DNA of 15,291 nt from assembly GCA_041677685.1 (NCBI GenBank), contig JBAYPN010000017.1, forward strand, positions 1 through 15,291, read 5' to 3'. The notes below the pieces were generated by a model. The model was not told where the DNA came from. It did not search any database and saw nothing but the letters and a program-made list of their open reading frames with translations. Of this stretch, positions 1 to 15,016 are shown piece after piece. The stretch is from an archaeon. Lineage in GTDB: Archaea; Iainarchaeota; Iainarchaeia; Iainarchaeales; CSSED10-239. The translations under genes were made by a program, and so were the position numbers. Each line of letters opens with the position of its first letter. Within the stretch, counting starts at the first letter, position 1.

Positions 1-128
1 AAACAAGTAGTGGAAAAATAATTAGAAGGATCTTAAGAGCAATTGCTTATGACTCAGAGGACTATGGAGATCTTTCAACCTTAGTAAACCCAGAGACAAT
101 TGAGCAAATTAAATTGAAGAAGTTGTAA
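1..128 (+). CDS. 3' end of an unidentified CDS (partial, runs off the left edge)
   Basis: Frame 3 is open from the window edge to TAA at 126-128 and translates to ...SSGKIIRRILRAIAYDSEDYGDLSTLVNPETIEQIKLKKL*. I recognise no family with confidence. The ORF track omits it because it is truncated. Confidence 0.4.
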   Translation, partial: TSSGKIIRRILRAIAYDSEDYGDLSTLVNPETIEQIKLKKL

Positions 129-276
129 AAAGAGGTTGTAAAGATAAGTTATAGGAAGAGATTTTTCTAATAATATAAGTTATTTTTTGAAAGAGAAACT
201 ATTCTTTACAAGAACAATTTAATTTTCCATCAACAAGGGGAGTTAACTTTGTCAACTCTTTTCTCTTCTTCTATTT

Positions 277-292
277 ACTTAGTTAACTAAGT
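277..292. repeat. perfect 16-nt palindrome ACTTAGTTAACTAAGT followed by CTTTTT
   Basis: Verified base by base as self-complementary. It shares an AGTTAAC core with an imperfect hairpin at 240-258 (GAGTTAAC-TTT-GTCAACTC, 7 of 8 pairs) that is followed by a T-rich run. It lies in the intergenic region between the partial CDS and ORF 375-677. It could be an operator or a terminator hairpin, and I cannot tell which. Confidence 0.5.
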
Positions 293-374
293 CTTTTTAT
301 ATTTTAATTTAGGTATTATTTATTATGTCAATTATTTTATAAGTTAAGATAATTTAAAAAGAGGTATTTTAAAT

Positions 375-677
375 ATGGTAAATATAAAATATAAGCAAGG
401 TGTAGATTATGGTCTTGCAAAGAAAAATACAAATGTTTCTTTGTCCTTAATTCTTTCTGATTTAAGAAAATTACAAAGATTACTTTCTACAAATATTGAG
501 CAGATGTCAAAAGTTCAATTAACAACTTTAAAAAAAGAAATTTTAAACTTACAATATAATCTTTCAGAAAATATTTCTAAAAAATCATTATCTAGTAATA
601 TTGTTTCTGAGTTTGAGAATTTAGATTACGATATTAAAGATAAGATTTTAGAGATTGATAAAAAGTTTTTAAATTAA
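375..677 (+). CDS. hypothetical small protein, probably helical or coiled-coil
   Basis: 100-aa ORF with ATG at 375, preceded by AAAGAGGT (GAGGT at 361-365, 9-nt spacer). No recognisable motifs, and the composition is Leu/Lys/Ser/Asn-rich. Confidence 0.5.
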   Translation: MVNIKYKQGVDYGLAKKNTNVSLSLILSDLRKLQRLLSTNIEQMSKVQLTTLKKEILNLQYNLSENISKKSLSSNIVSEFENLDYDIKDKILEIDKKFLN

Positions 678-921
678 TTTCTTTAATTTTCTTTACAATA
701 ATTAATTTAATATACGAGACATAATTATGAAAGAAATTTATAAACAAAAAAGAAAACAATTCTAAATTTTTAAATAAAATTCAGAAAGAAAAAATGAAAA
801 AGCTGTAGGATAATAAAGGAGATGAGGTTTGGGGTTAATTATAATTTTGGTTTTATTATAATTGCCTAAATTTAATTTATTGATAATTTTGATTTTGTAA
901 TTTAATTAATCGTTTTATAAA

Positions 922-1128
922 TCATTTTTTCTTTTTCAATTCATTTAGTTCTTTTAACAAACCCACTAAGTCAATATCGTACATCTCAGCAATCTGTCCA
1001 AGATTTAATAGATCAAGTTCCATTCTTGCCATTGGACAAGTAACACAAGGTACTGCAAACTTTGCTAAGATTTCTTGTCCTCTCTTAATATCATAAACTT
1101 CTCCAAGTTTTGTTTTTTCTGTAAACAT
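922..1128 (-). CDS. DUF1858 protein (hybrid-cluster-protein-associated redox disulfide domain, ScdA_N-like)
   Basis: 68 aa. The pattern L.E......G.EILAKF..PCVTCPMA....L.L..IAEMYDIDL..LL.ELN matches the DUF1858 pattern (...C.gCp.a..etl..aa..hgid...ll..ln). It has a CxxC pair. GAGG lies 8 nt upstream of the ATG. It is the last gene of the isc operon. Confidence 0.7.
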   Translation of the reverse strand: MFTEKTKLGEVYDIKRGQEILAKFAVPCVTCPMARMELDLLNLGQIAEMYDIDLVGLLKELNELKKKK

Positions 1129-1175
1129 ATTTTTGTCCTCTTTCTTCTTTTTTTAAAAAATGTCATATTTTTTTC

Positions 1176-1628
1176 TTAATGCTCACAACATCTGTAACAT
1201 GCGTCTTTTTTCTCAAGTTCAGAAATATCATAGCCTTGTTTTTTATAATAATCTTTAATTGCCATATGCAAAGTGTCTGCTGCCAAATTTGAACAGTGCA
1301 TTTTGATTGGAGGTAAACCATCAAGTTCTTTTGCAACACTTGCATTTGTGATTTTCATAGCTTTTTCTAAAGTTTTTCCTTTTGCAAGTTCTGTAATCAT
1401 AGAAGAGGTAGATATTGCTGCTGCACAACCCATTGTCTGAAATTTAATATCTTTTATGTATTCTACACCTTCTTTATCTTTTTCAACCTGGATGTAAACC
1501 TGCATGACATCTCCACACAAAAAATTTCCCATTTGACCAACACCATCTGCATTTTCAAGTTTCCCCATATTTCTAGGATTAAGGAAATGGTCTTTTACTT
1601 TTTCTGAATAGCTTGTGTTATTTACCAT
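1176..1628 (-). CDS. iscU: IscU/NifU-type Fe-S cluster assembly scaffold with a Cys-rich C-terminal tail
   Basis: The three canonical cluster-ligand motifs are present: GNFLCGDVM, FQTMGCAAAISTSS and PPIKMHCSNLAADTL. The N-terminus reads KVKDHFLNPRNMG. GTGATC lies 5 nt upstream of the ATG. An extra tail reads ...KKDACYRCCEH. Confidence 0.9.
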   Translation of the reverse strand: MVNNTSYSEKVKDHFLNPRNMGKLENADGVGQMGNFLCGDVMQVYIQVEKDKEGVEYIKDIKFQTMGCAAAISTSSMITELAKGKTLEKAMKITNASVAKELDGLPPIKMHCSNLAADTLHMAIKDYYKKQGYDISELEKKDACYRCCEH

Positions 1629-1635
1629 AAACTGA

Positions 1636-2442
1636 TCACATTTTTAATTGTCTTAATTCTTTATTTCTTTTTAATATGTAGGTTGTAAATTTTTTAGAAA
1701 CTGCGCTATACATCTCATTAGACATTTGTTTTTCTCCTCTAATACGACTAATAATATTTGCAATTTCTAAAAGATCTGTGTTTACTGTCATAAAATCTAA
1801 TTTATTATTTATTTTTTTAATTTTGTCAAAATCAATCAAATATACTTTTGGGTTTTTAGAAGAGATGTCTATTGCCCAATTTCCTAAATGAGGATGTGAG
1901 TGTGTATAATCATTTTTTAATAACTGTAATGTTATTTTTGTAATCTGTAAACTTATACTGTTTTTTTGTTCTTTTGTAAATTGAGAAATTACATTTTTTT
2001 CAATTAATCTTTCAATAGTTACAAGATTTTTTACAATAGATTGGTTGTCTTTTCCAAGTAAATATCTTTGTCCAATTGCTTTAGACTTAACTAACACCTG
2101 TCCTTTTTTAATTTCAAAATTATTTTCTTTTATTTCTTTTCTTATTTCTTTTAAAATTTTATTCCCTGTGCCCTCTATTTGCTCAACAGAAATTCCTTTG
2201 TCAAAAAGTTCTTTCCACATCCTGTATTTGTCTTTAGCCATGGTTTTATATACAAAACCTTCTTTATAAAATTTAAAGTTTGGTTCATGTACTGTTTGTT
2301 TTTGAATAACAAATACTTTTTTAGGTTTATTTCTACTAACTCTATATTTATTCTGTAGATCTTTTAATCCAAAAGTACTTTTCTTAAGTATCTCTTTATT
2401 CTTTTTAATTTCTTGCGGAGTTCTTCTTTTAATCTTCATCAT
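1636..2442 (-). CDS. hypothetical protein with a protein-kinase/APH-like catalytic core in which the catalytic Asp is replaced by His
   Basis: 268-aa ORF wedged 3 nt after the iscS stop and 7 nt before the iscU start. H181-S-H-P-H-L-G-N188 resembles the HGDLHPGN catalytic loop of the APH/Kdo/ABC1-type kinase fold, with H where the catalytic D should be. LIDFD (D204-F-D206) resembles the DFG/DFD Mg-binding motif. A candidate VAIK-type Lys is in GFVYKT. This is a motif-level call only. Confidence 0.55.
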   Translation of the reverse strand: MMKIKRRTPQEIKKNKEILKKSTFGLKDLQNKYRVSRNKPKKVFVIQKQTVHEPNFKFYKEGFVYKTMAKDKYRMWKELFDKGISVEQIEGTGNKILKEIRKEIKENNFEIKKGQVLVKSKAIGQRYLLGKDNQSIVKNLVTIERLIEKNVISQFTKEQKNSISLQITKITLQLLKNDYTHSHPHLGNWAIDISSKNPKVYLIDFDKIKKINNKLDFMTVNTDLLEIANIISRIRGEKQMSNEMYSAVSKKFTTYILKRNKELRQLKM

Positions 2443-2445
2443 CTC

Positions 2446-3597
2446 TCACTTTGAAAAAGGAGACATCTTTGTTAACTTCTCAATAATTATAGGTAAGACC
2501 TCTATTACCTTTTCAATTTCTTTTTTGGTTGTTTCTTTCCCTAAACTTATTCTTATGACCCCATTTGTTTCTTCAGGCTTAACATCAATAGCTTTAATTA
2601 CATGATTTGTTTGTAAGGTATTTGAGGAGCAAGCAGAACCAGTTGAAACCTTAATTCCTAAAAGATCTAAATGTAAAAGAATTGATTCTCCCTCAATATA
2701 ATTAAATCTAAAATTTATATTATTGCACAGTCTATTTTCTTTAGGTCCATTTAATTTAGCAGAAGGAATTTTTTTAAGAACTTTAGAAATTAAATAATCT
2801 CTAAGTTCAGTCATCCTAATAACATCTTCTTTAGTAATCACTTCAGTTGCTTTTGAAAAACCAACAATCCCAGAAACATTTAAAGTTCCACTTCTAAGAT
2901 TATATTCATGCCCCCCACCATGTAGCAAAGGTGTAATTTTAATTCCGTTCTTAACTAATAAAGCTCCAACACCTTTAGGTCCATAGATCTTATGAGCATT
3001 AATTGTAATTAAGGAAATATTATCTTCTTCTAAGTCAATTGGTATCTTTGTAAAACTTTGGCAAGCATCTGTATGGAATAATGTTTCTTTCTCTTTACAG
3101 ATTCTACCAATTTCTTTAATATTTTGAACAGTTCCAATCTCATTATTTGCATGAATTATTGAAACTAGAATTGTGTCTTTTCTAATTTTCTTTTTTAAAG
3201 TTTCTAAGTCAATAAAGCCTTCTTTGTTAACATCTAAGTAAGTAACTTCAAAGCCCTCTTTTTCTAAAAACTTTGCAGTATTTAGTATACAGTCATGCTC
3301 AATTTTACTAACAATTATGTGTTTTCCTTTTTCCTTATAACTATTTGCAATTCCTTTAAGTGCAAGGTTATTACTTTCTGTCCCTCCAGAAGTAAATATT
3401 AATTTGTAATTGTTTGCATTTAGTTTTTTTTTAATGTTTTCTCTTGCATCTTCTACCCTTTCTTTGGCATAGTTGCCTAAAGAGTGTAAGCTTGCAGAAT
3501 TTCCATAGTGATCAGTAAGAAAAGGTTTTATCTCTTTGTAAACATCTTTGTCAAGAGGTGTTGTTGCTGCATAATCTAAATATATAATTTCTGTCAT
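2446..3597 (-). CDS. iscS: cysteine desulfurase (IscS/NifS type, PLP-dependent)
   Basis: The protein starts MTEIIYLDYAATTPLD. Other motifs are TSGGTESNN, the PLP-Lys motif NAHKIYGPKGVGAL, and the active-site loop STGSACSS. I place the start at ATG 3597 (383 aa) rather than the ORF-track start at 3669. ATG 3597 is preceded by GTGAT with a 6-nt spacer and gives the canonical N-terminus. The longer version would overlap the arsR 3' end and has no ribosome-binding site. Confidence 0.9.
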   Translation of the reverse strand: MTEIIYLDYAATTPLDKDVYKEIKPFLTDHYGNSASLHSLGNYAKERVEDARENIKKKLNANNYKLIFTSGGTESNNLALKGIANSYKEKGKHIIVSKIEHDCILNTAKFLEKEGFEVTYLDVNKEGFIDLETLKKKIRKDTILVSIIHANNEIGTVQNIKEIGRICKEKETLFHTDACQSFTKIPIDLEEDNISLITINAHKIYGPKGVGALLVKNGIKITPLLHGGGHEYNLRSGTLNVSGIVGFSKATEVITKEDVIRMTELRDYLISKVLKKIPSAKLNGPKENRLCNNINFRFNYIEGESILLHLDLLGIKVSTGSACSSNTLQTNHVIKAIDVKPEETNGVIRISLGKETTKKEIEKVIEVLPIIIEKLTKMSPFSK

Positions 3598-3604
3598 AAG
3601 ATTA

Positions 3605-3907
3605 TCACTTTTCTGTAATATTACATTTCCCTTTACAAAAGTTAGCTGTATGTTTGTTAACAATTTCAACTAGGGGCTTAATTGTTTCTTTATTTAAAGA
3701 ATATTTAATATATTTGCCTTCCCTTTTTGAAAAAACAATATTACAGTTTGATAATGTTTTAAGATTGTGACTAACTTTTGATTGTTCCTCATCAATATCT
3801 TTACAGATGTCTTGTACAAACTTGTCAGACAAATATAAGGAATTAATGATTTTCCACCTTGTTTTGTTTGAAAGAACATTAAACAAAAAGTATGATTTGC
3901 ATTTCAT
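3605..3907 (-). CDS. ArsR/SmtB-family winged-helix transcriptional regulator, Cys-rich
   Basis: 100 aa. The pattern NVLSNKTRWKIINSL....FVQDICKDIDEEQSKVSHNLKTLSNCNIVFSKREGKYIKYSL is the typical ArsR HTH plus wing. It has five Cys, including a C-terminal FCKGKC. It is the first gene of the isc operon and has no ribosome-binding site, so it is probably leaderless. Confidence 0.8.
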   Translation of the reverse strand: MKCKSYFLFNVLSNKTRWKIINSLYLSDKFVQDICKDIDEEQSKVSHNLKTLSNCNIVFSKREGKYIKYSLNKETIKPLVEIVNKHTANFCKGKCNITEK

Positions 3908-3909
3908 AT

Positions 3910-3938
3910 ATAAGCTTATGATTAAAAAGTATTTTAAA
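3910..3938 (-). promoter_or_regulatory. putative leaderless promoter of the arsR-isc operon: a TATA-like box plus a 10-nt palindrome
   Basis: On the minus strand, TTTAAAAT (plus-strand coordinates 3931-3938) is centred about 27 nt upstream of the arsR ATG at 3907. The perfect palindrome ATAAGCTTAT (3910-3919) sits between the box and the ATG. A 10-nt palindrome is not statistically remarkable in DNA this AT-rich. Only its position is suggestive. Confidence 0.3.
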
Positions 3939-4020
3939 CATATTTGTTGTTTAGGAAAAAATTTAAATAAAATGTTTAAGTTGGTTTTTTTAAATATAAT
4001 TTCTATCTTAAATCAAAATT

Positions 4021-5217
4021 TTAAATTTTAGAATCTTTATCTAAAATAATATCTTTTGCTTTTTCAAGATCTTTATTATACAATAATTCAAATAGTCTTT
4101 GGCTATCAAAAGAATTAGAAAATTGTGTCTGCTTTAGTTGTTCAAAAAATATTTCTCTAGAGATTCCCTCAACATTAGCTTTTTTAGTTTGTAGTTCTTT
4201 TAGCTTTTCTAAGCTTTCCTTAAGCCTCTTCTCATCAATCTTATTTGAAAAAGAAAGGTAAAGTTCAGGAAACTCAAGTTCTATTTTTTTCAAATCTAAA
4301 TCCTTTGAAAAATATCCTTCTTCTAAGTCCCCTTTAATCCTTACCCTTACCATTGGTTTTTTATTATATTTTTTATTATTTATTTCTGTAAGTCTTTTTC
4401 TAATCTCTAAGGTTATTGTTTGTATGTCTACTTTATTAAATTTTAAATCAATATAAAAGATAGGTCTTGTGTTTTTAATTTCTTCAAAAACTAAATTGTT
4501 GGTGTTTGTGTCAAGCAAGTAAAAGCCCTTAGGTTTGTCTGCTTCTAATTTTTTATTTTGAGTAGACACTGTTGAGCCTGGCATCATAAATTTACCACCT
4601 TGTTCTAGATCAACAACAATGTTCCAATGAAGATGCCCATTAATAATTAAATTAAAATTAGCTGGGAGGTTTGATAAAGAAAGCATGTCCTCTGAGTCAA
4701 ACGGTAGATATTCTTTAAAAGATTGATGAACCATCAAAATATTATATTCATTTGGAACTGGTAGAGGATTAAACTTATTTAAAATATCTTTTGCATATCT
4801 GTCAGGAACCCCCCCTAAACCAAAGACATTAACATCTCCTATTTTTACAGAAGTTGCATGTAAGACTTTTAAAAAGCCAATAACTTCTAAAAGCTCAACT
4901 GTTGATTTATAGTCTTTACCTTTAAATTCATGATTTCCAAAAATAGAGAGCATTGGTATTTTTAATATCATACCTTCTGCATTTTTTAAATTAATTTTGT
5001 TTTCAGTATCTACATTGTTTAGTAATTTTATAGCTTCATAGTAGACCTCATGGTTAGGATCTTTTTTATCAAACAAATCTCCAGCAACAAGAATCAAGTC
5101 AACATCTTTACTTTTAATTTGTTCAAAGGCTTGTGACAACTGTGCAAAAGAATCAAATTCTAAATCACTACCCCAGTTAAGTCCAAGGTGCCAATCACTA
5201 ATTATTGCAATTTTCAT
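4021..5217 (-). CDS. mre11: Mre11-type DNA double-strand-break repair nuclease (calcineurin-like metallophosphoesterase)
   Basis: The phosphoesterase motifs occur in order: IISDWHLG, LILVAGDLFD, IFGNHE, MVHQ and INGHLH. A KGFYLLD capping-domain segment and a helical C-terminal tail follow. The protein is collinear by eye with Pyrococcus Mre11 as I remember it. Confidence 0.85.
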   Translation of the reverse strand: MKIAIISDWHLGLNWGSDLEFDSFAQLSQAFEQIKSKDVDLILVAGDLFDKKDPNHEVYYEAIKLLNNVDTENKINLKNAEGMILKIPMLSIFGNHEFKGKDYKSTVELLEVIGFLKVLHATSVKIGDVNVFGLGGVPDRYAKDILNKFNPLPVPNEYNILMVHQSFKEYLPFDSEDMLSLSNLPANFNLIINGHLHWNIVVDLEQGGKFMMPGSTVSTQNKKLEADKPKGFYLLDTNTNNLVFEEIKNTRPIFYIDLKFNKVDIQTITLEIRKRLTEINNKKYNKKPMVRVRIKGDLEEGYFSKDLDLKKIELEFPELYLSFSNKIDEKRLKESLEKLKELQTKKANVEGISREIFFEQLKQTQFSNSFDSQRLFELLYNKDLEKAKDIILDKDSKI

Positions 5218-5307
5218 AAACTTTTTTCCATTTTCTTTATAAATACTTCTAATAATAAATAATATATAGAGAGTAAGTAATTTATTAATTACTAATTCTT
5301 TTACAAA

Positions 5308-5378
5308 GCCAAGATGGCAGATCGGTTATGCCTCCGCCTGCAGAGCGGAAGAGTAGGGTTCGACTCCCTATCTTGGCT
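5308..5378 (+). tRNA. tRNA-Cys (anticodon GCA)
   Basis: Cloverleaf folded by hand. The acceptor stem is GCCAAGA/TCTTGGC. The D stem is GCAG/ATGC with a G-A mismatch, and the D-loop has GG. The anticodon stem is TCCGC/GCGGA with loop CTGCAGA (GCA at 5340-5342). The variable region is 4 nt. The T arm is TAGGG-TTCGACT-CCCTA. The discriminator is U73, the known Cys identity element. CCA is not encoded. A TTTATTAA box lies at 5281-5288. Confidence 0.9.
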
Positions 5379-5380
5379 CA

Positions 5381-5387
5381 TTTTTTT
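5381..5387 (+). terminator. oligo-T (T7) archaeal-type terminator after tRNA-Cys
   Basis: A T7 run begins 3 nt after the tRNA discriminator. Oligo-T tracts are the established archaeal termination signal. Confidence 0.5.
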
Positions 5388-5392
5388 AATTT

Positions 5393-7531
5393 CTAAATAG
5401 ATAAAAGATTTTTAAGTAGTTCTCTTTCTTTTTTGTAGATAGTTTCTTTTATTTGTAAGTTTTTATAATCTATGATTAAAGAATTTACTTTTAGTTCAAT
5501 TAATTCCTTTATTATTTCTTGAGAGTGATTGTTTACTTTTAAGATTCTTGTGATCTTATTCTCTTTACAGATCTCAAAAGCTCTTTTAAGCTCTAAAGAG
5601 TCTATTTTTTCTAGGTTAAAAATAAGTGAATCAATTCCTCTAGAGATATATTCTTCAATCAAAGTCTCTTTAATTGTTTCAATTGTTACACAAAGATTAT
5701 TATCTGTAACTTCTTTAATTGGGGTTATCTCATCAGAGGACTTTAAATTTTCAAGAACTATATTTATTTTAGGATTATTGATTTCAAGTAATGTTTCTAT
5801 CTCGTAGCTTGAGGTGTTTTTTGAAAGTAGATTGGAATTATGTAAATTAATCTTATAATATATAATTTCTTTATTTAACTTTTCAGAAAATAATTTTAAT
5901 TTACATTTAATCTTGTTTATGAAAATTGAATTGTCTTTTATAATCTCATTAAGCTCTTCTTCTTTAAACAAAGAGTTTACAGTTATTAAAAAACCATCAA
6001 CCTCATTTAAGTTAATATCTTTTAAGTCATCTAGATCTTTTAAATCAATTATAATTTTTGTAATTGTTTCAGGAAATTCTGGTTCCTTTCTTAAAAGTTT
6101 AATTTCTTCTTTTTTATTAAGGTTGTTTTTAGAGTCGTCCCTTATAACTAATTTTACACCTGTTAGCTTGTAGACTATTCCTGCACCCCCATTAAGCTGG
6201 ACACTATCTCCATTCTTTAATAGTTTGGTTGCATAGTCTGTATGAACAACACAAGGGATATCATATTTCTTAGAAATTAAGGCAGCATGGCAAATTGAAC
6301 TACCTGCATCTGTGATAATTCCTTTTGCAATTTTTAGGTAAGGGGTCATTTCTAAGGTTGTCATCTTAGTAACTAGTATGTGATTTTCTGTAATATCTTT
6401 AAGGTCTTCAGGTTTATTTATAACTTTTATAATTCCGTTAACCACTCCCTGGCAGATAGGTATTCCTTCTAAGAGAACTTCTTTTTTATAAGAGTCCATT
6501 TTGTCTTGAAGAGAAGCGTCCTTTTTCTTTTTAATTTTTAATTTTTTTAAATTTGGGTCAAGTGGGTCTGCACTTATTAAATGGATGTCTGCTTTTCCAA
6601 TAACCCAATCAATATAGAGAGGAGTTCCAAAATACAGTTCTAGTTTGTTTCCAATTTCAGTAAGTTCTTTTACATCTCTTAAGTCTAGTTTGTTTTTATC
6701 AAGAGTAGAAGGTTCAAGATTTATTTTTGTTGTTTTTCCTGTCAATCTTCTTATCATCCATTCTTGTTTTGATTTTGTTTTTTTAATAATTGAATAATTT
6801 TTTTTATTAATTTCATAGTGTTCAGGGGTAATCTCTGAAATAAGGCTTTTACCTCCAATACCGTAAATAACTTCTATGACTGTGCTTTTTTTATCTTGCA
6901 TTTCTTTTGTGGTAATTATTATTCCAGACTTACTTGCATTTATCATTTTTTGAATAACTATTGCATATCCAATTTTATTAATTTGTAAATTATTATCTTT
7001 AATATATTCTAGGACTTCTGGAGAATATAAAGATGCCCAGCATCCCTTGACTGACTTGTAGATGTTTTCAATTCCTTTAATATTAATAAATCCACTAAAT
7101 TGTTCTATAAAGTCTAAATCTTTTGGGCTTATCTCTTCGCTTGTTATTGAAAGTCTTATAGAAACAAATTCATCTACTTTGCTATTTAGCCAGCCAACCT
7201 TTTGTTCACCAATTTTTATATATGCTTTTCCAAGTTCTGCCTTAAAGTCATCTGTGAATTGGTTATTTAAAAATATTTTTTTAATCTCAATTGATTTTTT
7301 TTCTAAGTCTTTTTTATTTGTGTAATCTATTGTTTCTAAAAGCAGGTTTATTTTTTCTTTTAGATTATTTGTTTGTAAGAAAGAGAAATAGAATTTGTTA
7401 CCAATAACAAAAGCTCTAGGTATAGGGAAGTTAGCTCTTGAGAGTTCTGCAAGTCTTGCTGCTTTGTAACCTACCTCTTGTATATCATTATCTGTTATTT
7501 CTTTTAACCATTTTATGTTTTTACTGTCCAT
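5393..7531 (-). CDS. PEP synthase / pyruvate phosphate dikinase family protein with a divergent, apparently non-catalytic C-terminal domain
   Basis: The N-terminal PPDK_N/ATP-grasp signature is present (VGYKAARLAEL...FPIPRAFVI). The central swivel phosphohistidine domain reads ILVTKMTTLEMTPYLKIAKGIITDAGSSICHAALISKKYDIPCVV, with His415 at nt 6287-6289. The C-terminal 240 aa or so has an alternating beta/alpha character but lacks the NPMLG, (S/T)NDxTQ and catalytic-Cys motifs. Confidence 0.8.
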   Translation of the reverse strand: MDSKNIKWLKEITDNDIQEVGYKAARLAELSRANFPIPRAFVIGNKFYFSFLQTNNLKEKINLLLETIDYTNKKDLEKKSIEIKKIFLNNQFTDDFKAELGKAYIKIGEQKVGWLNSKVDEFVSIRLSITSEEISPKDLDFIEQFSGFINIKGIENIYKSVKGCWASLYSPEVLEYIKDNNLQINKIGYAIVIQKMINASKSGIIITTKEMQDKKSTVIEVIYGIGGKSLISEITPEHYEINKKNYSIIKKTKSKQEWMIRRLTGKTTKINLEPSTLDKNKLDLRDVKELTEIGNKLELYFGTPLYIDWVIGKADIHLISADPLDPNLKKLKIKKKKDASLQDKMDSYKKEVLLEGIPICQGVVNGIIKVINKPEDLKDITENHILVTKMTTLEMTPYLKIAKGIITDAGSSICHAALISKKYDIPCVVHTDYATKLLKNGDSVQLNGGAGIVYKLTGVKLVIRDDSKNNLNKKEEIKLLRKEPEFPETITKIIIDLKDLDDLKDINLNEVDGFLITVNSLFKEEELNEIIKDNSIFINKIKCKLKLFSEKLNKEIIYYKINLHNSNLLSKNTSSYEIETLLEINNPKINIVLENLKSSDEITPIKEVTDNNLCVTIETIKETLIEEYISRGIDSLIFNLEKIDSLELKRAFEICKENKITRILKVNNHSQEIIKELIELKVNSLIIDYKNLQIKETIYKKERELLKNLLSI

Positions 7532-7777
7532 TTTTAATCTTTTTTTATTTTTTTATATTTGTTTCTATTTTATATTATATAGAAAACTATTTATAGGTTT
7601 TTAGTTAGGTTTCTTTCTCGGCAAACTACCCCCCTCCAAAAGAGATATATAAGTTATTTACCATAATATTATTGTTAACCCAAGTTTAATACCTTACTTG
7701 TGGAAAATGATTTGTGAGACGAGAAACACAAGAAATAAAACGTGAAAAAAGATGAAAGGAAAAAAGGTGAAAAACAT

Positions 7778-8872
7778 ATGGCAAAAAAAAATAATTTTGA
7801 TGAAAAAGAATCAGAAGAAGTTGTTGATGAAACTTACGAGGATGACTTAGAGGATGAGGCTTTTGAGCAAGAGGTTGATGATGACTTTAAGACAGATGCT
7901 CCAAAGACAGAAGAGGAAAAACTTAAAGAAAAAATTAAACCTAAAGATATAGGCAAACTCCCTGGGATAGGGCCTACCTCTGCAGAGAAGCTAAGAGGAG
8001 CTGGTTATGATTCTTATGAGGCTATAGCTGTAGCTTCACCAATGGAACTTGTAGCTGTTGCTGGTTTAGGGGAAGGCACAGCCATTAAGGCTATTAAGGC
8101 TGCAAGAGACTCTCTAGACATGGGTTTTGAGAGTGCAGACAAGATTTTATTAAAAAGAAAGACAATCTCTAGGTTATCAATAGGTGCAGAGTCTTTAGAT
8201 GAACTTTTAGGTGGAGGTATAGAGAGCCAATCAATAACTGAAGTGTATGGTAAGTTTGCTTCTGGTAAAAGTCAGTGGTGTTTTCAACTTTGTGTTATGG
8301 CTCAATTGCCTAAGGACAAAGGTGGTCTAGGCGGTGCAGTTCTATATATTGATACAGAAAATTCATTTAGACCTGAAAGAGTTGCACAGATCTCTAAGCA
8401 TTTAGGGGTTGATCCTGATGAGATTATGAAAAATATTTATGTTGCAAGAGCATACAATAGTAACCATCAGATGTTACTTACAGAAAAGAGCGTTGATTTG
8501 ATTAAGGAGCATAATGTTAAATTATTGATTGTGGATTCTTTAACAAGTCAATTTAGATCTGAGTATACTGGTAGAGGGCAACTTTCAGACAGACAACAAA
8601 AGCTAAATCAACATATGAGGTTGTTACAGAAAGTTGCAGAGTTGTATAATGTTGTTGTCTTTGTAACCAACCAGGTTATGTCAAGACCTGACATTCTCTT
8701 TGGAGACCCTACAGATGCTATTGGGGGTAATGTTGTAAAGCATGCCTCAAAGACAAGAATTTATTTAAGAAAGGGAACTGGTTCAAAGAGGATTGCAAAA
8801 CTAGTAGATTCTCCTTCTCTTCCAGATGGTGAAGCAATATATAATGTTACTGAGAATGGTGTTGTTGATTAA
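7778..8872 (+). CDS. radA: RadA recombinase (archaeal Rad51/RecA homologue)
   Basis: The HhH domain reads LPGIGPTSAEKLRGAGYDSYEAIAVASPMEL. Walker A is GKFASGKSQ and Walker B is KLLIVDSLTS. Further matches are FRSEY.GRG.L..RQQKL, VFVTNQV and the ending RIAKLVDSPSLPDGEA. The protein is nearly collinear with Pyrococcus RadA. I prefer ATG 7778, with GGTGA at 7766-7770 and a 7-nt spacer, over the upstream in-frame GTG at 7742 used by the ORF track. Confidence 0.95.
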   Translation: MAKKNNFDEKESEEVVDETYEDDLEDEAFEQEVDDDFKTDAPKTEEEKLKEKIKPKDIGKLPGIGPTSAEKLRGAGYDSYEAIAVASPMELVAVAGLGEGTAIKAIKAARDSLDMGFESADKILLKRKTISRLSIGAESLDELLGGGIESQSITEVYGKFASGKSQWCFQLCVMAQLPKDKGGLGGAVLYIDTENSFRPERVAQISKHLGVDPDEIMKNIYVARAYNSNHQMLLTEKSVDLIKEHNVKLLIVDSLTSQFRSEYTGRGQLSDRQQKLNQHMRLLQKVAELYNVVVFVTNQVMSRPDILFGDPTDAIGGNVVKHASKTRIYLRKGTGSKRIAKLVDSPSLPDGEAIYNVTENGVVD

Positions 8873-8884
8873 GTTGTATAGCGC

Positions 8885-8920
8885 TTTTTCTCTTTTTCTT
8901 CCTTTTTTATTTTTCTTTTT
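8885..8920 (+). terminator. series of oligo-T runs terminating radA
   Basis: The sequence GCGCTTTTTCTCTTTTTCTTCCTTTTTTATTTTTCTTTTTT starts 10 nt after the radA stop and contains several T5-T6 tracts. Confidence 0.45.
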
Positions 8921-9790
8921 TTATAATTTTCTTCTAAGCTTTAGATCTTTATAATATTCAAATTTTCCAAAGTGTTCACCCATAGGTGTTTTTTTACATT
9001 CCTTTTTATAATCTAAAATTTTTTTTTTTTTTACTTCAAGTGAATCTTTTGACATAATTCCTGGACCACCAATACAGCCACCTTCACAAAAAAGAATATC
9101 TAAAAGTCTAATATTTTTATTTTTCTCCATTTTTTTAATTGCCAAATCAATTCCTTTTATTCCATCAGCAATAACTACTTGTTTCTTTTCTACAATTTCT
9201 TTGTAGTTCATGGTTTTTGCTACAGCTCCTGAAAGTGGATAGATTTTTGTATAATCATTATATAGCTTATTAAAGTCAACAGTCTTTGGGTCTATGTCAA
9301 TTTTTTTAAACAACTTTTTTTCAGCATAATAATCAAAAATTTCTTGTAATTCTTTAAAGGTTATAGCAAAATCGACCTCATGATTTTCAATAGCTTCTTG
9401 TTTTTTAGAAAGGCAAGGTCCAACAAATATCGTCTTATAGCTTGGGTATTCAGCATGTGAATATCTTCCCATGATTATCATTGGAGACGCCACATTAATT
9501 ATCTTAGCTTTATGCTGTGGGTATTTATTTTCTATATACTTAACAACACTTGGGCAATTAGCACAGATAAATTGTTTTTCTGGAAGTCTTTTAAGAATCT
9601 TACTATACCTTATACTTATTAATTTTGCAGCATAAGTGAGTTCTAGGATTTTAGAAAACCCAATTTTTTTAAGATCAATAATTATATCAGGGTATTTAAA
9701 GTCAACAGGAAAGGCAGGTGCTAACAAGCACACAGTCTTTTTAGTATTAATTATTTTTATTATTTTTTTTAAATTGTCTGAAAGTTCCAT
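8921..9790 (-). CDS. [FeFe]-hydrogenase catalytic (H-cluster) domain-only protein, minimal form
   Basis: 289 aa and collinear with the Fe_hyd_lg_C pattern. The matches are LLAPAFPV (APA.R region), LKKIGFSKILELTYAA (lkklGFd.v.d..fgAD), L1-like FICANCPSVVKYIENKYP (canonical ftSCCPgWv.y.Ek.yP), ASPM (SPqq), L2 VGPCLSKKQEA (MPCxxKKxE), VDFAITFKEL (vD.VlT..El) and L3 FCEGGCIGGPG (ACxGGCixGGGqp). The four cluster-ligand Cys positions are present (C79, C126, C235, C239). There is no ferredoxin-like accessory domain. AGGTAAT lies 8 nt upstream of the ATG. Confidence 0.75.
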   Translation of the reverse strand: MELSDNLKKIIKIINTKKTVCLLAPAFPVDFKYPDIIIDLKKIGFSKILELTYAAKLISIRYSKILKRLPEKQFICANCPSVVKYIENKYPQHKAKIINVASPMIIMGRYSHAEYPSYKTIFVGPCLSKKQEAIENHEVDFAITFKELQEIFDYYAEKKLFKKIDIDPKTVDFNKLYNDYTKIYPLSGAVAKTMNYKEIVEKKQVVIADGIKGIDLAIKKMEKNKNIRLLDILFCEGGCIGGPGIMSKDSLEVKKKKILDYKKECKKTPMGEHFGKFEYYKDLKLRRKL

Positions 9791-9835
9791 ACTCTATTAC
9801 CTTTTTTTCTTTTTTTAAATTAATTTTTTTTAACC

Positions 9836-10807
9836 CTAGTCTTTTATAAAATTTTTATATTTACTATTTTTATTTTTTAATAGAACAATTCTTGAAGCAA
9901 CTTGTTCATCAATAATTTTAAACTTAGAGGACTTCTTTTCAATCTCTTTTGCAAAGTTAGAAACTTCTTCATGGTTTGGCATGTTTTCAAATTTCAAATT
10001 TTCTCTAGAATATCCTAAAAACATGTACGATTTAATTTCTAAAAAATCAGAATCTGTTTTTTCAAACAATTTAACATATTCATCTAAATACTCTAAAGAA
10101 TCATTAATTCCTTTAATCATTGTAAATCTTAATACTCTTCTACAATTTAATTTTGGAAACAATTCTAAAGTTTTATTAAAAATTTCCCAACTATTCTTTA
10201 TTTTTGGTCTATTAATTTTAAAATGTAAATCTTTATTAGGTGCTTCAATTGAAAGATAAAGTTGTGTTGGTAAACAATTATTATTGTTTAGTTCTTCTAA
10301 TCTTTTAGGCTCTAAACCATTTGTTACGATAAATATACTTTTTATTTCTTTTTTAGATTTTAAGTAAGAAACCATTTCTCCAATCTTAGGATAGATTGTA
10401 GGTTCTCCAGCAAGAGAGATAGCAACATGAGAAGGTGTTAAGCTTTCTTCTAGTAGTTTAGAATTAACCTTTTGGTTTCCTCCAAAGCCACTTAATAGTT
10501 TTTGTCTTTTTATAAATAGACCTTCAATAATATCTTTAGGGTCATCAATTCTTTCACCCATTTCCCAAGCAGGCATATAGTTTGCTGGTCTCCAGCAGAA
10601 ACTACAATTTTGATGACACCATAAGACTGTAGGTGTTATCTGAGCACACCTATGACAATCAACATTATAAAATTTTTGTTTATAACAAACACCTTCTCCT
10701 CTTAGAGCCTTTTTGTTCCATTCGCAAATCTCTACTGCTGAATGTTCTCCAAAAATCCTATAGTGTTTATGTTCCAAATCTTTAAAGATTTCTTTTTTAT
10801 TTTCCAT
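9836..10807 (-). CDS. taw1: tRNA 4-demethylwyosine synthase Taw1/TYW1 (radical SAM)
   Basis: The protein matches archaeal Taw1 (for example the M. jannaschii enzyme as I remember it) from end to end. The matches are HSAVEICEW, CYKQKFYNVDCHRCAQITPTVLWCHQNCSFCWR (CxxxCxxC), HVAISLAGEPTIYP, PTQLYLSIEAP, LEIKSYMFLGYSR and SRIVLLKNKN. There is no ribosome-binding site. A TATA-like TTTATTTAAT on the minus strand (plus-strand 10831-10840) is centred about 28 nt upstream of the ATG, so the transcript is probably leaderless. Confidence 0.9.
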   Translation of the reverse strand: MENKKEIFKDLEHKHYRIFGEHSAVEICEWNKKALRGEGVCYKQKFYNVDCHRCAQITPTVLWCHQNCSFCWRPANYMPAWEMGERIDDPKDIIEGLFIKRQKLLSGFGGNQKVNSKLLEESLTPSHVAISLAGEPTIYPKIGEMVSYLKSKKEIKSIFIVTNGLEPKRLEELNNNNCLPTQLYLSIEAPNKDLHFKINRPKIKNSWEIFNKTLELFPKLNCRRVLRFTMIKGINDSLEYLDEYVKLFEKTDSDFLEIKSYMFLGYSRENLKFENMPNHEEVSNFAKEIEKKSSKFKIIDEQVASRIVLLKNKNSKYKNFIKD

Positions 10808-10901
10808 AATTAATATCTTGTAACATAATCATTAAATAAAGTATGTTTAAAAACATTTTGTCTAATTCTTATTTAATATATGTTATACTAAAGGTGATAA
10901 T

Positions 10902-12434
10902 TTGGTTAAAAAAAAGAAAATTATTAAAAAGAAGAAGGAAAATTTAAAAGAAACTTCTTCTAAAAAAGATAATTTAGAAAATAAACCTTCTTCTGATCAG
11001 AAGTTAGAAAAAGGAAAAGAAAAAGATATTAAAGTAACACATACTAAAGTTGCAGAAAATAAAAGCTGTAAAGATAAAAAAAGTTGTGTGTTCTCAAAAA
11101 AGAAAGACTTGATTACAATTTTAATACTTGTGATTTTAATTATTGTGATTGTTTTAATATCTGTTTTTACACCAGCAAACAATGACACAAATCCTCCAGT
11201 TGACACAAATGTACCTGTTGATGCAAATCTAGATACTAACACTACAATTCCAACAATTACACAAGAAGAATTTCAAGTAAAATCATTAGAATTGCAATTA
11301 AAGATTTTAAGAGAAGTTAAAGAAAAACAAACTGCTTTTTTAGAAACTAAATATACAGAATTGGATTTAGATGCAGAACAAATGGATCAATGTCTTTTAG
11401 AAAATGATTATGCAGATCCTGACATGAATGTTTTAGCATCAGACATAATTATGAAAATTCAAACAGATTCTTTCTTAGCAACAAATTTAGGTGTTAGTGG
11501 GACTCCTGGAATTTATGTAAATGGTTATTTTATAAATGGAGCTCAAGATTATAACTTTGTTTCTGAGAAAATAGAATTTGCATTAGCAGATCCTGTTATT
11601 GATTGGAACTATGAAAATAAATCATATAAATCTGATATAGATTCAGAACCAACATTAACAATTTTATATAATGATAGACATCAAATAACTAAAGACAACA
11701 CTACAGAGTTAATTGAGTTTATGAAAAGCTCTGAACAACTAACCCCTGAGATTAAAGAATTTTTTAACAAGTTATTTTCAGAAACAGAAGTTGTTTATTT
11801 ATCTTATGAAGATCCTTTTGCAAGAGATTTGATTGAAGCAGTTGGGTTGACTGTGATTCCTGGTTTCTACTTAGATGGAAATATTGAGGGTTTAGATATT
11901 ATGACTGATGAAAATCTATCTTACTTTTTTACAAATTTGTTTGTAGAGACATCAACTAATGGTTATGTGTTGTCTCCAAGTGTTGTTTCTGATTTGATTT
12001 CTGCAGCAAACATAACTACTCTAAATCAATTATTAAACTATGATATCATGGTTGACGAGTTAGACTATGTTATGGGGGATCCTGAAGCAAAAGTAAATAT
12101 CTATGTGTTTACAGATTATGATTGCCCATACTGTACGAAATTTGAGCAAGAAACACAATCTTTGGTTATAGAGAACTATGTGGATGCCAATAAAGCAAAC
12201 CTAGTAATTAAAGATTTTGTTGTTCATGAGATGTCAGCATTATTCCCTGCAATATTTTCTAGATGTGCAGAGAAACAAGGAAAATACTTAGAGACACATG
12301 AATTGTTGTTTAGTCTTAGAGAACAATTAGGTCAAAAAGCAATGGTAGATCCAGTAATGGAAAAATATAATGATGAAATTGAAGAACTAAACAAGCTTTA
12401 TCAGCAATTACTTGGGCAAGGCCAAGCTCAGTAA
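10902..12434 (+). CDS. membrane-anchored DsbA/thioredoxin_4-like thiol:disulfide oxidoreductase, multi-domain with an atypical domain order
   Basis: The start is TTG at 10902, preceded by AAGGTGAT with a 4-nt spacer. The next in-frame Met lies far downstream of the TM helix, so a non-ATG start is required. The layout is a Lys-rich N-terminal tail (aa 1-69), one TM helix (aa 70-89, LITILILVILIIVIVLISVF), a DTN/PV repeat linker, GVSGTPGIYVNG (the DsbA cis-Pro loop, aa 198-207), a Cys-less Trx-like middle part (GLTVIPGFYLDG), and the active site FTDYDCPYCTKFE (C408-C411, nt 12123-12134). Confidence 0.75.
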   Translation: MVKKKKIIKKKKENLKETSSKKDNLENKPSSDQKLEKGKEKDIKVTHTKVAENKSCKDKKSCVFSKKKDLITILILVILIIVIVLISVFTPANNDTNPPVDTNVPVDANLDTNTTIPTITQEEFQVKSLELQLKILREVKEKQTAFLETKYTELDLDAEQMDQCLLENDYADPDMNVLASDIIMKIQTDSFLATNLGVSGTPGIYVNGYFINGAQDYNFVSEKIEFALADPVIDWNYENKSYKSDIDSEPTLTILYNDRHQITKDNTTELIEFMKSSEQLTPEIKEFFNKLFSETEVVYLSYEDPFARDLIEAVGLTVIPGFYLDGNIEGLDIMTDENLSYFFTNLFVETSTNGYVLSPSVVSDLISAANITTLNQLLNYDIMVDELDYVMGDPEAKVNIYVFTDYDCPYCTKFEQETQSLVIENYVDANKANLVIKDFVVHEMSALFPAIFSRCAEKQGKYLETHELLFSLREQLGQKAMVDPVMEKYNDEIEELNKLYQQLLGQGQAQ

Positions 12435-12463
12435 TTTTTTCTTCTTTCTTTTTTTATTTTTTT
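12435..12463 (+). terminator. oligo-T tracts after the DsbA-like gene
   Basis: TTTTTTCTTCTTTCTTTTTTTATTTTTTT follows the TAA stop immediately. Confidence 0.45.
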
Positions 12464-12474
12464 AAATCTATCTA

Positions 12475-12482
12475 TTTATAAA
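12475..12482 (+). promoter_or_regulatory. TATA-like box (TTTATAAA) for tRNA-Arg
   Basis: It is centred about 30 nt upstream of the mature tRNA 5' end at 12509 and matches the archaeal TTTAWATA-type consensus. AT-rich background lowers specificity. Confidence 0.35.
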
Positions 12483-12508
12483 TATTTTCTTAGTCTATAT
12501 CTATAAGT

Positions 12509-12581
12509 GGGTCCGTGGCCTAGTGGATAGGGCAACAGCCTTCTAAGCTGTGGGTCGAGGGTTCGAATCCCTCCGGACTCG
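12509..12581 (+). tRNA. tRNA-Arg (anticodon UCU)
   Basis: 73-nt cloverleaf folded by hand. The acceptor stem is GGGTCCG/CGGACTC with one G-U pair. The D arm is GCCT-AGTGGATA-GGGC. The anticodon stem is ACAGC/GCTGT with loop CTTCTAA (TCT at 12542-12544). The variable region is GGGTC. The T arm is GAGGG-TTCGAAT-CCCTC. The discriminator is G. CCA is not encoded. Confidence 0.95.
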
Positions 12582-12582
12582 C

Positions 12583-12589
12583 TTTTTTT
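12583..12589 (+). terminator. oligo-T (T7) after tRNA-Arg, overlapping a possible TATA-like element for argS
   Basis: GC-TTTTTTT-AAATTA directly follows the tRNA. TTTTAAAT (12586-12593) is centred about 22 nt upstream of the argS ATG. Confidence 0.45.
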
Positions 12590-12611
12590 AAATTAGAGAT
12601 TACTGTGTGTT

Positions 12612-14315: not shown

Positions 14316-14932
14316 TTAAACAAATGGAATATTTTGATATAATTTATGAAGAGTTATTAGAAAATAATAGCTTTAAAAAAATTGAAGACACTTTCTTAAG
14401 TTTAGGCTATAAACATGTCTTTGTGGTAAGAGAGATTAACACCCAAGAAAGTCTAACCTCTCAGTTTCTTTTACCAAAATCTAAAAAATTAAAATTCCAT
14501 AAGTTATTTTTATTTTCTGATCTAAAATTATTAAATAAATATAAATCTTTAGAAAAAATAATCTATGTTGGTGGTAACTTAAAAGAAAACACTCTAGCAA
14601 TAAACAATTTAAAAGTAAATATTCTTTTAAACCCAATTTCAGAGAAGTTAAGTTTTGATGAGCAGTCTGCAAACATGATTAAACAACAAAATAAAATTGT
14701 TGCTTTTAAGACTTCTCTTTACACAGATAGGTTTGTACTTAGAAATTTAAAACAAACTCAGTTTATAATAGATTTGTTAAAAATAAAGCAAGCAGATTTT
14801 ATATTCTCTTCTTTTGCAAGAAACTATGAAGAACTAGTAGATATTAATATCTTAAAATCTTTTTTAATAAACTTTAATTTAGAGGAGCAATTTATAGATA
14901 GGTTGTTAGACAGAAAAATACTATTAGAATAA
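14312..14932 (+). CDS. rnp3: RNase P protein component 3 (Rpp30 family)
   Basis: About 200 aa. By eye it is collinear with Pyrococcus Rpp30 over VNILLNP...FDEQSANMIKQQNKIVAFKTSL......LRNLKQTQFIIDLLKIKQADFIFSSFARNYEELVDINILKSF. It is followed by the partner subunit Pop5, and these two subunits form a complex. The start is either GTG 14312, which overlaps the argS TGA in ATGTGA, or ATG 14324 (MEYFDI...). Confidence 0.7.
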   Translation: MIKQMEYFDIIYEELLENNSFKKIEDTFLSLGYKHVFVVREINTQESLTSQFLLPKSKKLKFHKLFLFSDLKLLNKYKSLEKIIYVGGNLKENTLAINNLKVNILLNPISEKLSFDEQSANMIKQQNKIVAFKTSLYTDRFVLRNLKQTQFIIDLLKIKQADFIFSSFARNYEELVDINILKSFLINFNLEEQFIDRLLDRKILLE

Positions 14933-14967
14933 TTGTTAGGTAAGAAAATTAAAATTTAAAATTAAAG

Positions 14968-14995
14968 TTGAAAACTAAGAATTGAAAACTAAGAA
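14968..14995. repeat. perfect tandem duplication of the 14-mer TTGAAAACTAAGAA
   Basis: Copies at 14968-14981 and 14982-14995 are identical. They lie in the 84-nt spacer between rnp3 and rnp2. Confidence 0.85.
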
Positions 14996-15016
14996 AAAAT
15001 AAAGTGATTGATAAAA

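Follow-up and report, generated by a model that had tools for sequence, protein, structure and literature searches.

A predicted kinase-fold protein with histidine at the catalytic aspartate position is encoded between iscS and iscU in low-GC DPANN archaea

Results

A kinase-fold open reading frame between two iron-sulfur genes

The window analyzed here is a stretch of 15,291 nucleotides (nts) from an uncultured archaeon (contig JBAYPN010000017.1, assembly GCA_041677685.1, positions 1 to 15,291). It carries on the minus strand a tight cluster of genes in the order ArsR, IscS/MisS, KIN, IscU/MisU and DUF1858, where KIN denotes the open reading frame (ORF) at 1636-2442, which encodes 268 amino acids (aa) and is the subject of this report. 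The ATG of KIN (2440-2442) lies 3 nts behind the TGA of the IscS-type gene (2446-2448), and its own TGA (1636-1638) is separated by 7 nts from the ATG of the IscU gene (1626-1628). These spacings were read from the sequence and agree with an earlier description made from the DNA letters alone (hereafter, the sequence-only reading), which had omitted that the strand is minus. The NCBI gene call for KIN starts at the second Met, giving 267 aa, and is labeled 'hypothetical protein' of an uncultured archaeon; the IscU neighbor is identical to a record assigned to 'Candidatus ainarchaeum sp.' (Iainarchaeota/DPANN). GC content within the window ranges from 22 to 36%, that of the genome is about 28%, and the gene content is archaeal. 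KIN has four His and no Cys, an isoelectric point (pI) of 10.06 and a net charge of +31, the highest among the window proteins.

The gene preceding KIN (2446-3597, minus) encodes a 383-aa cysteine desulfurase of the IscS/NifS/MisS type (Aminotran_5, E = 3.5e-84; TIGR03402 NifS, E = 1.2e-144). Its start was set at the ATG at 3595-3597, in agreement with the 383-aa NCBI call and with the MKEIYLDYAAT start of the orthologues; a longer, TTG-started ORF of 407 aa, which reaches 3669 and overlaps the ArsR gene, is probably spurious, an artefact of mechanical ORF calling. The gene following KIN (1176-1628, minus) encodes a 150-aa iron-sulfur (Fe-S) scaffold of the IscU/NifU_N type, that is, MisU (NifU_N, E = 5e-45; TIGR03419, E = 3e-55). 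The SACSS active-site loop and the HK pyridoxal phosphate site of IscS and the Cys/His ligands of IscU are visible in the translations, indicating a desulfurase-scaffold pair of the MIS/ISC type. The cluster begins with an ArsR/SmtB-family winged-helix regulator bearing a C-terminal Cys motif (3605-3907, minus; HTH_5; NF033788, E = 9e-17), 7 nts upstream of IscS, and ends, 47 nts past IscU, with a 68-aa CxxC protein of the DUF1858/hybrid-cluster-protein-associated redox-disulfide domain type (922-1128, minus; TIGR03980, E = 8e-7; PF08984, E = 8e-4).

One database protein, P0039 (659 aa, corresponding to about 1610-3597 of the window, minus), gave the appearance of an IscS-kinase fusion. It results from a gene call that reads both TGA stops, those of IscS and KIN, as Trp, and was rejected as a genetic-code artefact and not a Rosetta-stone fusion. 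The same artefact caused one cluster at 90% identity to mix desulfurases with KIN.

Fold assignment

KIN matched no family of Pfam, NCBIfam, PADLOC or PHROG, the sole hit being a spurious one to UPF0738 (E = 0.22). An exhaustive phmmer search with KIN against 1.84 billion representative proteins gave 34 relatives at E ≤ 1e-3, and an alignment of 33 sequences was used for the column counts given below, for the profile compared with the PDB and for structure prediction by AlphaFold. A word-indexed homologue search, even with a profile, retrieved only 2-3 relatives, probably due to the low-complexity, Lys-rich sequence of KIN. P0018 (2846 aa) was excluded as a family member, being a multi-domain canonical kinase. 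In the databases and literature searched, the KIN family is undescribed, as the sequence-only reading had supposed, and so are its His-substituted loop and its place inside a minimal Fe-S operon; the fold itself is known.

Four tests assign KIN to the protein kinase fold, which had been proposed from motifs. In two of them, which compare sequences, a single-sequence phmmer search with KIN matched, at E = 1.8e-10, a protein bearing four canonical Pkinase domains, and the 33-member profile searched against all PDB sequences found CK1δ as the best match (E = 3.6e-8), ahead of CDPK, DAPK and further kinases. Removing the two members that have Asp at position 183 left the match at E = 5.6e-6 and a total of 80 kinase chains at E ≤ 1e-3. 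The significant homology of the profile to Ser/Thr kinases begins at the hinge and continues over αE and the catalytic loop as far as the DFG motif. The hhalign comparison with DAPK1 gave E = 3.4e-6 and left the N-lobe unaligned. A profile built from the 9 closest sequences had no PDB match, indicating that the broad alignment is required.

The third test is the AlphaFold model. Prediction from the single sequence gave a predicted local distance difference test score (pLDDT) of 35 and was discarded, whereas prediction with the family alignment gave a pLDDT of 86.9 and a predicted template modeling score (pTM) of 0.82, with the elements in the order of the protein-kinase-like fold. In the model, two N-terminal helices precede β1 (44-47), β2 (57-60), β3 (63-69), αC (70-81), β4 (89-92) and, after a short helical insertion, β5 (115-121). 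The hinge, in which G124 is invariant, is followed by a variable loop of low confidence (127-137), αD, αE (157-176), the catalytic loop (181-188), β7, β8 and the DFD motif (204-206). Two helices complete the model, a long one at 215-235 and one at the C-terminus (243-267). Only about 8 residues connect D206 to the helix at 215-235, which corresponds to αF, and the model thus leaves no activation segment, APE motif, P+1 loop or peptide-binding platform. As the fourth test, a Foldseek search of the PDB with this model placed Bud32 (4ww7_A) first (E = 3.7e-6, TM 0.44-0.49); there were 613 matches at E ≤ 1e-3, and the 50 best listed were protein-kinase-fold chains throughout. KIN is thus a small protein-kinase-fold protein with the size and truncated shape of Bud32/RIO, composed of a five-strand N-lobe plus αC and a short C-lobe. 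RIO kinases share the truncated C-lobe lacking an activation segment.

Substitutions in the catalytic loop

Codon-by-codon reading locates the catalytic loop, (Y-T-)H181-S-H183-P-H185-L-G-N188, equivalent to HRDxKxxN of kinases, at 1879-1902 (minus), and the DFG-equivalent motif, L202-I-D204-F-D206, at 1825-1839 (minus). In the hidden Markov model alignment with CK1δ, H-x-H-x-H-x-x-N of the family coincides with HRDVKPDN, and LIDFD coincides with IIDFG; hhalign placed the KIN loop on HFDLKPEN of DAPK1. According to these alignments, His183 is at the position of the catalytic Asp, as first noted in the sequence-only reading, and His185 is at the position of the catalytic-loop Lys. Position 183 is His in 31 of the 33 sequences and Asp in the other two, H181 is found in 32 and H185 in 31. 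N188 and D204, which align with the catalytic-loop Asn and the DFG Asp, the metal ligands of kinases, are invariant (33/33). D206 is variable (19/33), which corrects the earlier reading of LIDFD.

The N-lobe is less well defined. K66 (2245-2247, minus), on the predicted β3, is assigned from the model topology as the putative equivalent of the ATP-anchoring Lys of the VAIK motif, and this position is Arg in 24 and Lys in 6 of the 33 members. E78 in αC is not conserved; E87 is nearly invariant (32/33), like W76 (32/33), but is located just before β4, outside the predicted αC. Because hhalign left the N-lobe unaligned, the assignments of the αC Glu and the β3 Lys are tentative. No conserved Gly exists in the β1-β2 turn (residues 48-56, KQTVHEPNF in KIN) across the 33-member alignment, in line with the previous remark that no Gly-rich loop was obvious.

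By sequence, therefore, the family has retained the putative metal/nucleotide ligands N188 and D204, a basic β3 residue (K66, mostly Arg) and the hinge G124, and has lost the Asp serving as phosphotransfer base, the Lys contacting the γ-phosphate and the Gly-rich loop. Pseudokinases are defined by sequence as lacking at least one of the β3 Lys, the HRD Asp and the DFG Asp (PMC4718504), and by this definition KIN, with His183 in place of the HRD Asp, is a predicted pseudokinase. The near invariance of the loop, with His for Asp and His for Lys, suggests that the chemistry was repurposed and did not simply decay. At position 183, the two exceptions have the loops HTDAHIGN (P0017) and HTDLKPGN (P0024), the latter being a fully canonical Ser/Thr kinase loop; they point to descent of the family from active kinases and show that His and Asp are interchangeable at this position.

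These exceptions bear on the explanation that KIN is an active atypical kinase of proteins or small molecules, in which His183 would either serve as general base or carry the phosphate as a phospho-His intermediate and the target would be IscS, IscU, ArsR or a metabolite. The Asp183 members, one of them canonical, suggest a scaffold derived from active kinases; Asn188, Asp204 and a basic β3 residue are kept; and some proteins classed as pseudokinases stay active through atypical mechanisms (PMC9403797, PMC4718504). Nevertheless, a protein without the HRD Asp is by the standard definition a predicted pseudokinase (PMC4718504), and the Gly-rich loop, the catalytic-loop Lys, the activation segment and the P+1 platform are all absent, and we regard phosphotransfer by KIN as very improbable indeed.

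The same residues raise the explanation that KIN is a protein binding a transition metal (Fe2+/Zn2+), possibly an iron donor, whose pocket would accommodate Fe(II) or Zn(II), whether or not nucleotide is also bound, and supply IscU with iron or sense iron on its behalf. The kinase residues equivalent to H183 and H185 face into the active site, next to the counterparts of Asn188 and Asp204, and two His with one carboxylate would resemble a 2-His-1-carboxylate metal site. H183 and H185 are each nearly invariant, as counted above, and the exchange of His and Asp at position 183 is typical of metal ligands, or of acid-base residues. The linkage of the gene to an Fe-S assembly operon and the lack of a known iron donor in MIS (PMC13066941) fit as well. 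On the other hand, KIN contains no Cys and only four His, and members without linkage to isc genes share the motif. To our knowledge there is no kinase-fold metallochaperone, and a transition-metal-binding or iron-donor function in general is doubtful. Its most specific form, in which His183, His185, Asp204 and Asn188 form a nucleotide-gated Fe(II) site and KIN is the missing iron donor or an ATP-driven metallochaperone of MisS-MisU, is more doubtful still; if true, KIN would be the first kinase-fold metallochaperone and the third component of a system thought to need two proteins.

Conservation of the gene neighborhood

Genomic context was examined for 15 of the 34 representative clusters, using for the locus scan the alignment of 9 sequences in place of that of 33, which was too diverse. 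Ten of the 15 clusters were linked to isc genes, in three arrangements. Arrangement A, (Mre11-like)-ArsR-IscS-KIN-IscU-DUF1858, is that of the window and of five independent metagenome contigs, L007 (identical to L011), L012, L013, L014 and L015, with identities of 36-65% for KIN, 64-95% for IscS and 64-91% for IscU; in L012, the KIN gene overlaps by 4 nts with the genes on both sides. Arrangement B, ArsR-KIN-IscS, was found in L032. ArsR takes the same first position in L012, L014, L015 and L032 as in the window. Arrangement C, in L026, L029, L030 and L031, consists of an NFACT-like gene and KIN, followed by convergent DUF1858-IscU-IscS, so that KIN and DUF1858 abut 3′ end to 3′ end. Its IscU and IscS are 40-46% and 46-55% identical, respectively, to those of the window, and IscU is on the contig in three of the four cases, the short L030 contig covering no more of the cluster than its DUF1858 end. 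The neighbor-joining tree separates clades A and C, which are 26-34% identical.

In L032, the KIN gene (353-1094) is frameshifted, its pieces being P0029 and P0013; either an A-rich run was misassembled or the gene is a pseudogene.

Retention at one locus while position and orientation change is a classical sign of functional coupling, and the spacers of 3-7 nts together with the 4-nt overlaps imply obligatory co-expression in the arrangements concerned. The sequence-only reading had taken KIN for an insertion between iscS and iscU. The isc linkage recurs, in the three arrangements and two clades described; the family is not exclusive to isc loci, as 5 of the 15 clusters lie in unrelated contexts (see Discussion).

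A further relative, P0009 (254 aa; L022, 1-1480), is flanked by a TYW1 radical-SAM gene and an Fe-hydrogenase-like (Fe_hyd_lg_C) gene. The window has these two genes side by side (8921-10807) with a 45-nt spacer. Here again, as with KIN, a family member sits inside a closely packed pair of Fe-S protein genes.

Family members and selection

The family comprises about 34 clusters at 50% identity from low-GC, Iainarchaeota-like DPANN archaea and is confined to a few uncultured lineages. The KIN orthologues are intact. The ratio of nonsynonymous to synonymous substitution rates (dN/dS; Nei-Gojobori) ranged over 0.10-0.21 for KIN in its three closest pairs and reached 0.34 for KIN of the window against that of L007, compared with 0.04-0.11 for IscU and about 0.12 for IscS in the same pairs. 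KIN is under purifying selection and evolves several times faster than its neighbors. A scan of viral contigs found no KIN relatives, and an origin from a phage or mobile element was rejected on this ground; a role in a defense system was rejected for the absence of PADLOC matches.

Several relatives depart from the size or setting of KIN. Distant ones of about 490 aa (L010, 1433-2914; L019, 418-1878; L020, 872-2332) keep the loop as HGHPHLGNW and have C-terminal HEAT repeats, which also occur in one member of the 33-sequence alignment; P0032 and P0033 pair together in the tree. Two tandem family paralogues are present on the Iainarchaeota contigs L008 (1597-3436) and L016, both from metagenome-assembled genomes (MAGs), preceded by a conserved 140-aa protein and followed by a fusion of a nucleotide-kinase-like domain and dCMP deaminase. 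On L009 (252-1091, plus strand), an Iainarchaeota contig that also bears a family member, there is a separate kinase-like ORF of 279 aa with a canonical-looking D-L-K-P-E-N loop, to which the family model gave no match.

All members checked are basic (pI 9.3-10.2), and this property raises the explanation that KIN is a Bud32/RIO-like ATPase directed to tRNA or other RNA, which would tie IscS-derived sulfur or Fe-S enzymes to tRNA modification instead of cluster assembly. Bacterial IscS is the sulfur donor for tRNA thiolation, and tRNA-related genes (TYW1, the NFACT-like gene and that for seryl-tRNA synthetase, SerRS) are among the neighbors of the family. The nearest fold, Bud32, has a tRNA-driven ATPase (PMC11621456), and the net charge of KIN would suit RNA binding. 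However, the Lys-richness is partly compositional in a genome of such low GC content, no RNA-binding domain was detected in KIN, the tRNA-thiolation genes ThiI, MnmA and Ncs6 are not adjacent, and the list of neighbors is small and was selected after the fact. An RNA-directed function is therefore improbable.

Other genes of the window

Other window genes assigned by Pfam encode RadA/Rad51, a calcineurin-type (Mre11-like) phosphoesterase, TYW1 and arginyl-tRNA synthetase (ArgRS). Several features of the cluster and of the remaining window are recorded here in their own right.

The DUF1858 protein follows IscU in both lineages (window, 922-1128, minus; L026, 1463-1750; L029, 1505-1777; L031, 1069-1758), and L031 has the two joined in frame, giving one NifU_N product of 229 aa. 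The DUF1858 protein accompanies IscS-IscU more constantly than KIN does, and it may be an unrecognized MIS accessory protein. The C-terminal Cys motif of ArsR is FCKGKC in the window and is shared by the orthologues (CKGQCKLLKECK, FCKGNCKLCKEK, FCKGKCKACKN); ArsR could be a repressor sensing Fe-S clusters or sulfur. The C-terminus of IscU (1176-1200, minus) has an extra Cys-rich tail, DACYRCCEH, located past the canonical three Cys and His ligands, and most orthologues have a similar tail (ACYKCCEH, ACYRCCHK, ACYRCCNK).

Next to TYW1, a 289-aa protein (8921-9790, minus; net charge +21) consists of the C-terminal domain of the Fe-only hydrogenase large subunit alone (E = 1e-37) and is more like Nar1-type proteins, which belong to cytosolic Fe-S assembly in eukaryotes, than like a full hydrogenase. 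A 712-aa protein (5393-7531, minus) has PPDK_N and PEP-utilizers mobile domains, and approximately its last 260 residues match no Pfam family where the PEP-utilizers_C TIM barrel is expected. Two tRNA genes are on the plus strand: tRNA-Cys(GCA) at 5308-5379, between the Mre11-like and PPDK-like genes, and tRNA-Arg(TCT) at 12509-12582, immediately upstream of the ArgRS gene.

Discussion

A role for KIN with IscS and IscU

Of the readings considered, we tentatively favor, as a possibility that falls short of being probable, that KIN is a co-expressed, Bud32/RIO-like accessory or regulatory protein of the MIS module that binds nucleotide or metal and is not a conventional protein kinase. The role with IscS and IscU is inferred from the gene neighborhood. 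KIN would be translated together with IscS and IscU and act on them as an accessory or regulatory subunit; its remodeled pocket would bind nucleotide and a divalent metal; and the protein could serve as a nucleotide-dependent switch, or as an ATPase, that gates sulfur transfer or cluster release. ISC uses HscA and SUF uses SufC as the ATP-using partner, and KIN may fill the energy-coupling gap of MIS in these lineages, as MIS has no known partner of this kind.

A Bud32/RIO-like role is favored over phosphorylation because the peptide-substrate apparatus, the Gly-rich loop and the catalytic Asp and Lys are all absent while the putative metal/nucleotide ligands are invariant. It is also favored because the nearest structure, Bud32, works in this manner, as an atypical kinase/ATPase that regulates its partner enzyme Kae1 (PMC3814370, PMC11621456), and because MIS is described as having no accessory or energy-coupling component. 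According to a 2026 review (PMC13066941), MIS consists of MisS and MisU only, with no carrier, chaperone or other accessory component, is the least studied system of Fe-S biogenesis and is regarded as the one from which ISC and NIF descend.

Several points weigh against this accessory role. The 5 clusters without isc linkage carry the same His motif. Of the members with no Fe-S link, P0002 and P0011 follow an MFS transporter, P0007 occurs in tandem copies in Iainarchaeota MAGs next to the dCMP-deaminase fusion, and P0006, P0008 and P0021 lie by a serpin gene, the SerRS gene and DNA ligase/HAD genes, respectively. The core activity of the family thus cannot be isc-specific, and only the partner would be specific in clades A to C. 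Arrangement C is convergent, so that KIN is not co-transcribed with IscS and IscU there. All linked loci come from related low-GC archaea; the linkage may be partly inherited synteny and the three orders local rearrangements of one ancestral adjacency. In the closest pair, KIN is 65% identical and its neighbors 91-95%. As for nucleotide binding, the Gly-rich loop is absent, and the αC Glu has no assigned residue, E87 being outside the predicted αC.

Alternatively, KIN may be a passenger, namely a fast-evolving, lineage-specific kinase-like gene that came to lie in or near the isc cluster, stays there through inherited synteny and has an unrelated function, such as general signaling or host interaction in DPANN symbionts. 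The occurrence of a third of the examined clusters in unrelated contexts, the tandem paralogues, the rapid divergence relative to IscS and IscU and the origin of all loci from related archaea agree with this, and the position of P0009 between two genes that are adjacent in the window suggests gene mobility. Against it, all three gene orders retain KIN at the isc locus even where IscS identity has fallen to about 46-55%, the short spacers and overlaps imply obligatory co-expression, and KIN is under purifying selection. We consider a passenger gene unlikely, although less so than the kinase, metal and RNA explanations given above.

For the accessory or regulatory role, the significance is as follows. 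Where the two-protein MIS system gets its iron and electrons, and what gives it direction, are standing questions, for which a conserved, co-translated third gene is a concrete, testable candidate. Whatever its part in Fe-S biogenesis, the family extends the repertoire of pseudokinases and atypical kinases by an archaeal branch. The family is small, restricted to a few uncultured DPANN lineages and not exclusively isc-linked, and its proposed function is deduced from sequence.

Comparison with known systems

Bud32 (PRPK) of the KEOPS complex is the best Foldseek match; it is archaeal, of about equal size, and has a truncated C-lobe without an activation segment. Bud32 retains the catalytic Asp, whereas the KIN family has His. 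The proposed mode of action would also be alike, a regulatory ATPase on a partner enzyme and not a signaling kinase (PMC3814370, PMC11621456). Unlike Bud32, KIN has no adjacent or fused Kae1; its partner genes are those of IscS and IscU, and no Kae1-like gene was found beside any of the 15 clusters examined. Bud32 is also absent from the 60 best PDB sequence matches of the KIN profile. That KIN is a divergent Bud32 orthologue was rejected on account of the missing Kae1 linkage, the missing Asp and the multiple paralogues.

With the Ser/Thr protein kinases (CK1, CDPK and DAPK) the family shares the conserved HRD His, catalytic-loop Asn and DFG Asp, and P0024 keeps HTDLKPGN. It differs from them in that the HRD Asp and the catalytic-loop Lys are both His in KIN, the β3 Lys is mostly Arg in the family, and KIN has no Gly-rich loop, activation segment, APE motif or αG-αI substrate-binding lobe. 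No single family member had a strong match to Pfam Pkinase, the best being E = 1e-4.

The sequence-only reading had placed the motifs of KIN in the branch of APH, Kdo (WaaP) and ABC1-UbiB. The likeness of the motifs stands, as the pattern HGDLHPGN...IDFD of that branch includes His at the H185 position. The placement is not established, because sequence comparison points first to eukaryotic-type Ser/Thr kinases and fold comparison to Bud32, and matches to Pfam ABC1 (9/33), APH (7/33) and Kdo (6/33) are weak (best E = 4e-4 to 2e-3). KIN itself matches none of the three, the Asp of the Brenner motif (HxDxxxxN) is gone, and no family-specific elements were detected.

Pseudokinases such as bacterial ActPs2, the JAK JH2 domain and HER3 resemble KIN in missing the catalytic Asp, and by analogy with them a regulatory, non-phosphotransfer role of KIN is likely. 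Substitutions of the β3 Lys by Arg and of the HRD Asp have bacterial precedents; ActPs2 is the example for β3 Lys to Arg, and its Asp substitution is Asn (PMC12599244). KIN differs in that the replacement is His, in 31 of 33 members, and is accompanied by a second His; such a near-invariant His-x-His pair is not mentioned in the available part of PMC12599244. KIN is further set apart by its archaeal (DPANN) origin, its minimal size and its embedding in an operon of metabolic enzymes.

The Fe-S accessory factors HscA/HscB, Fdx, IscA, CyaY/frataxin, IscX and SufC form the last group. Pfam and NCBIfam gave no homology of KIN to HscA/B, Fdx, IscA, CyaY, IscX or SufC/D/E/T, and the listed fold matches are kinases only. 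In the literature searched, there was no precedent for a kinase fold as an accessory of Fe-S assembly and nothing relevant on pseudokinases, archaea and IscU together. Like these factors, KIN is encoded inside a desulfurase-scaffold operon, and it may provide a nucleotide-dependent or metal-handling step, one that is absent from the two-gene MIS system (PMC13066941).

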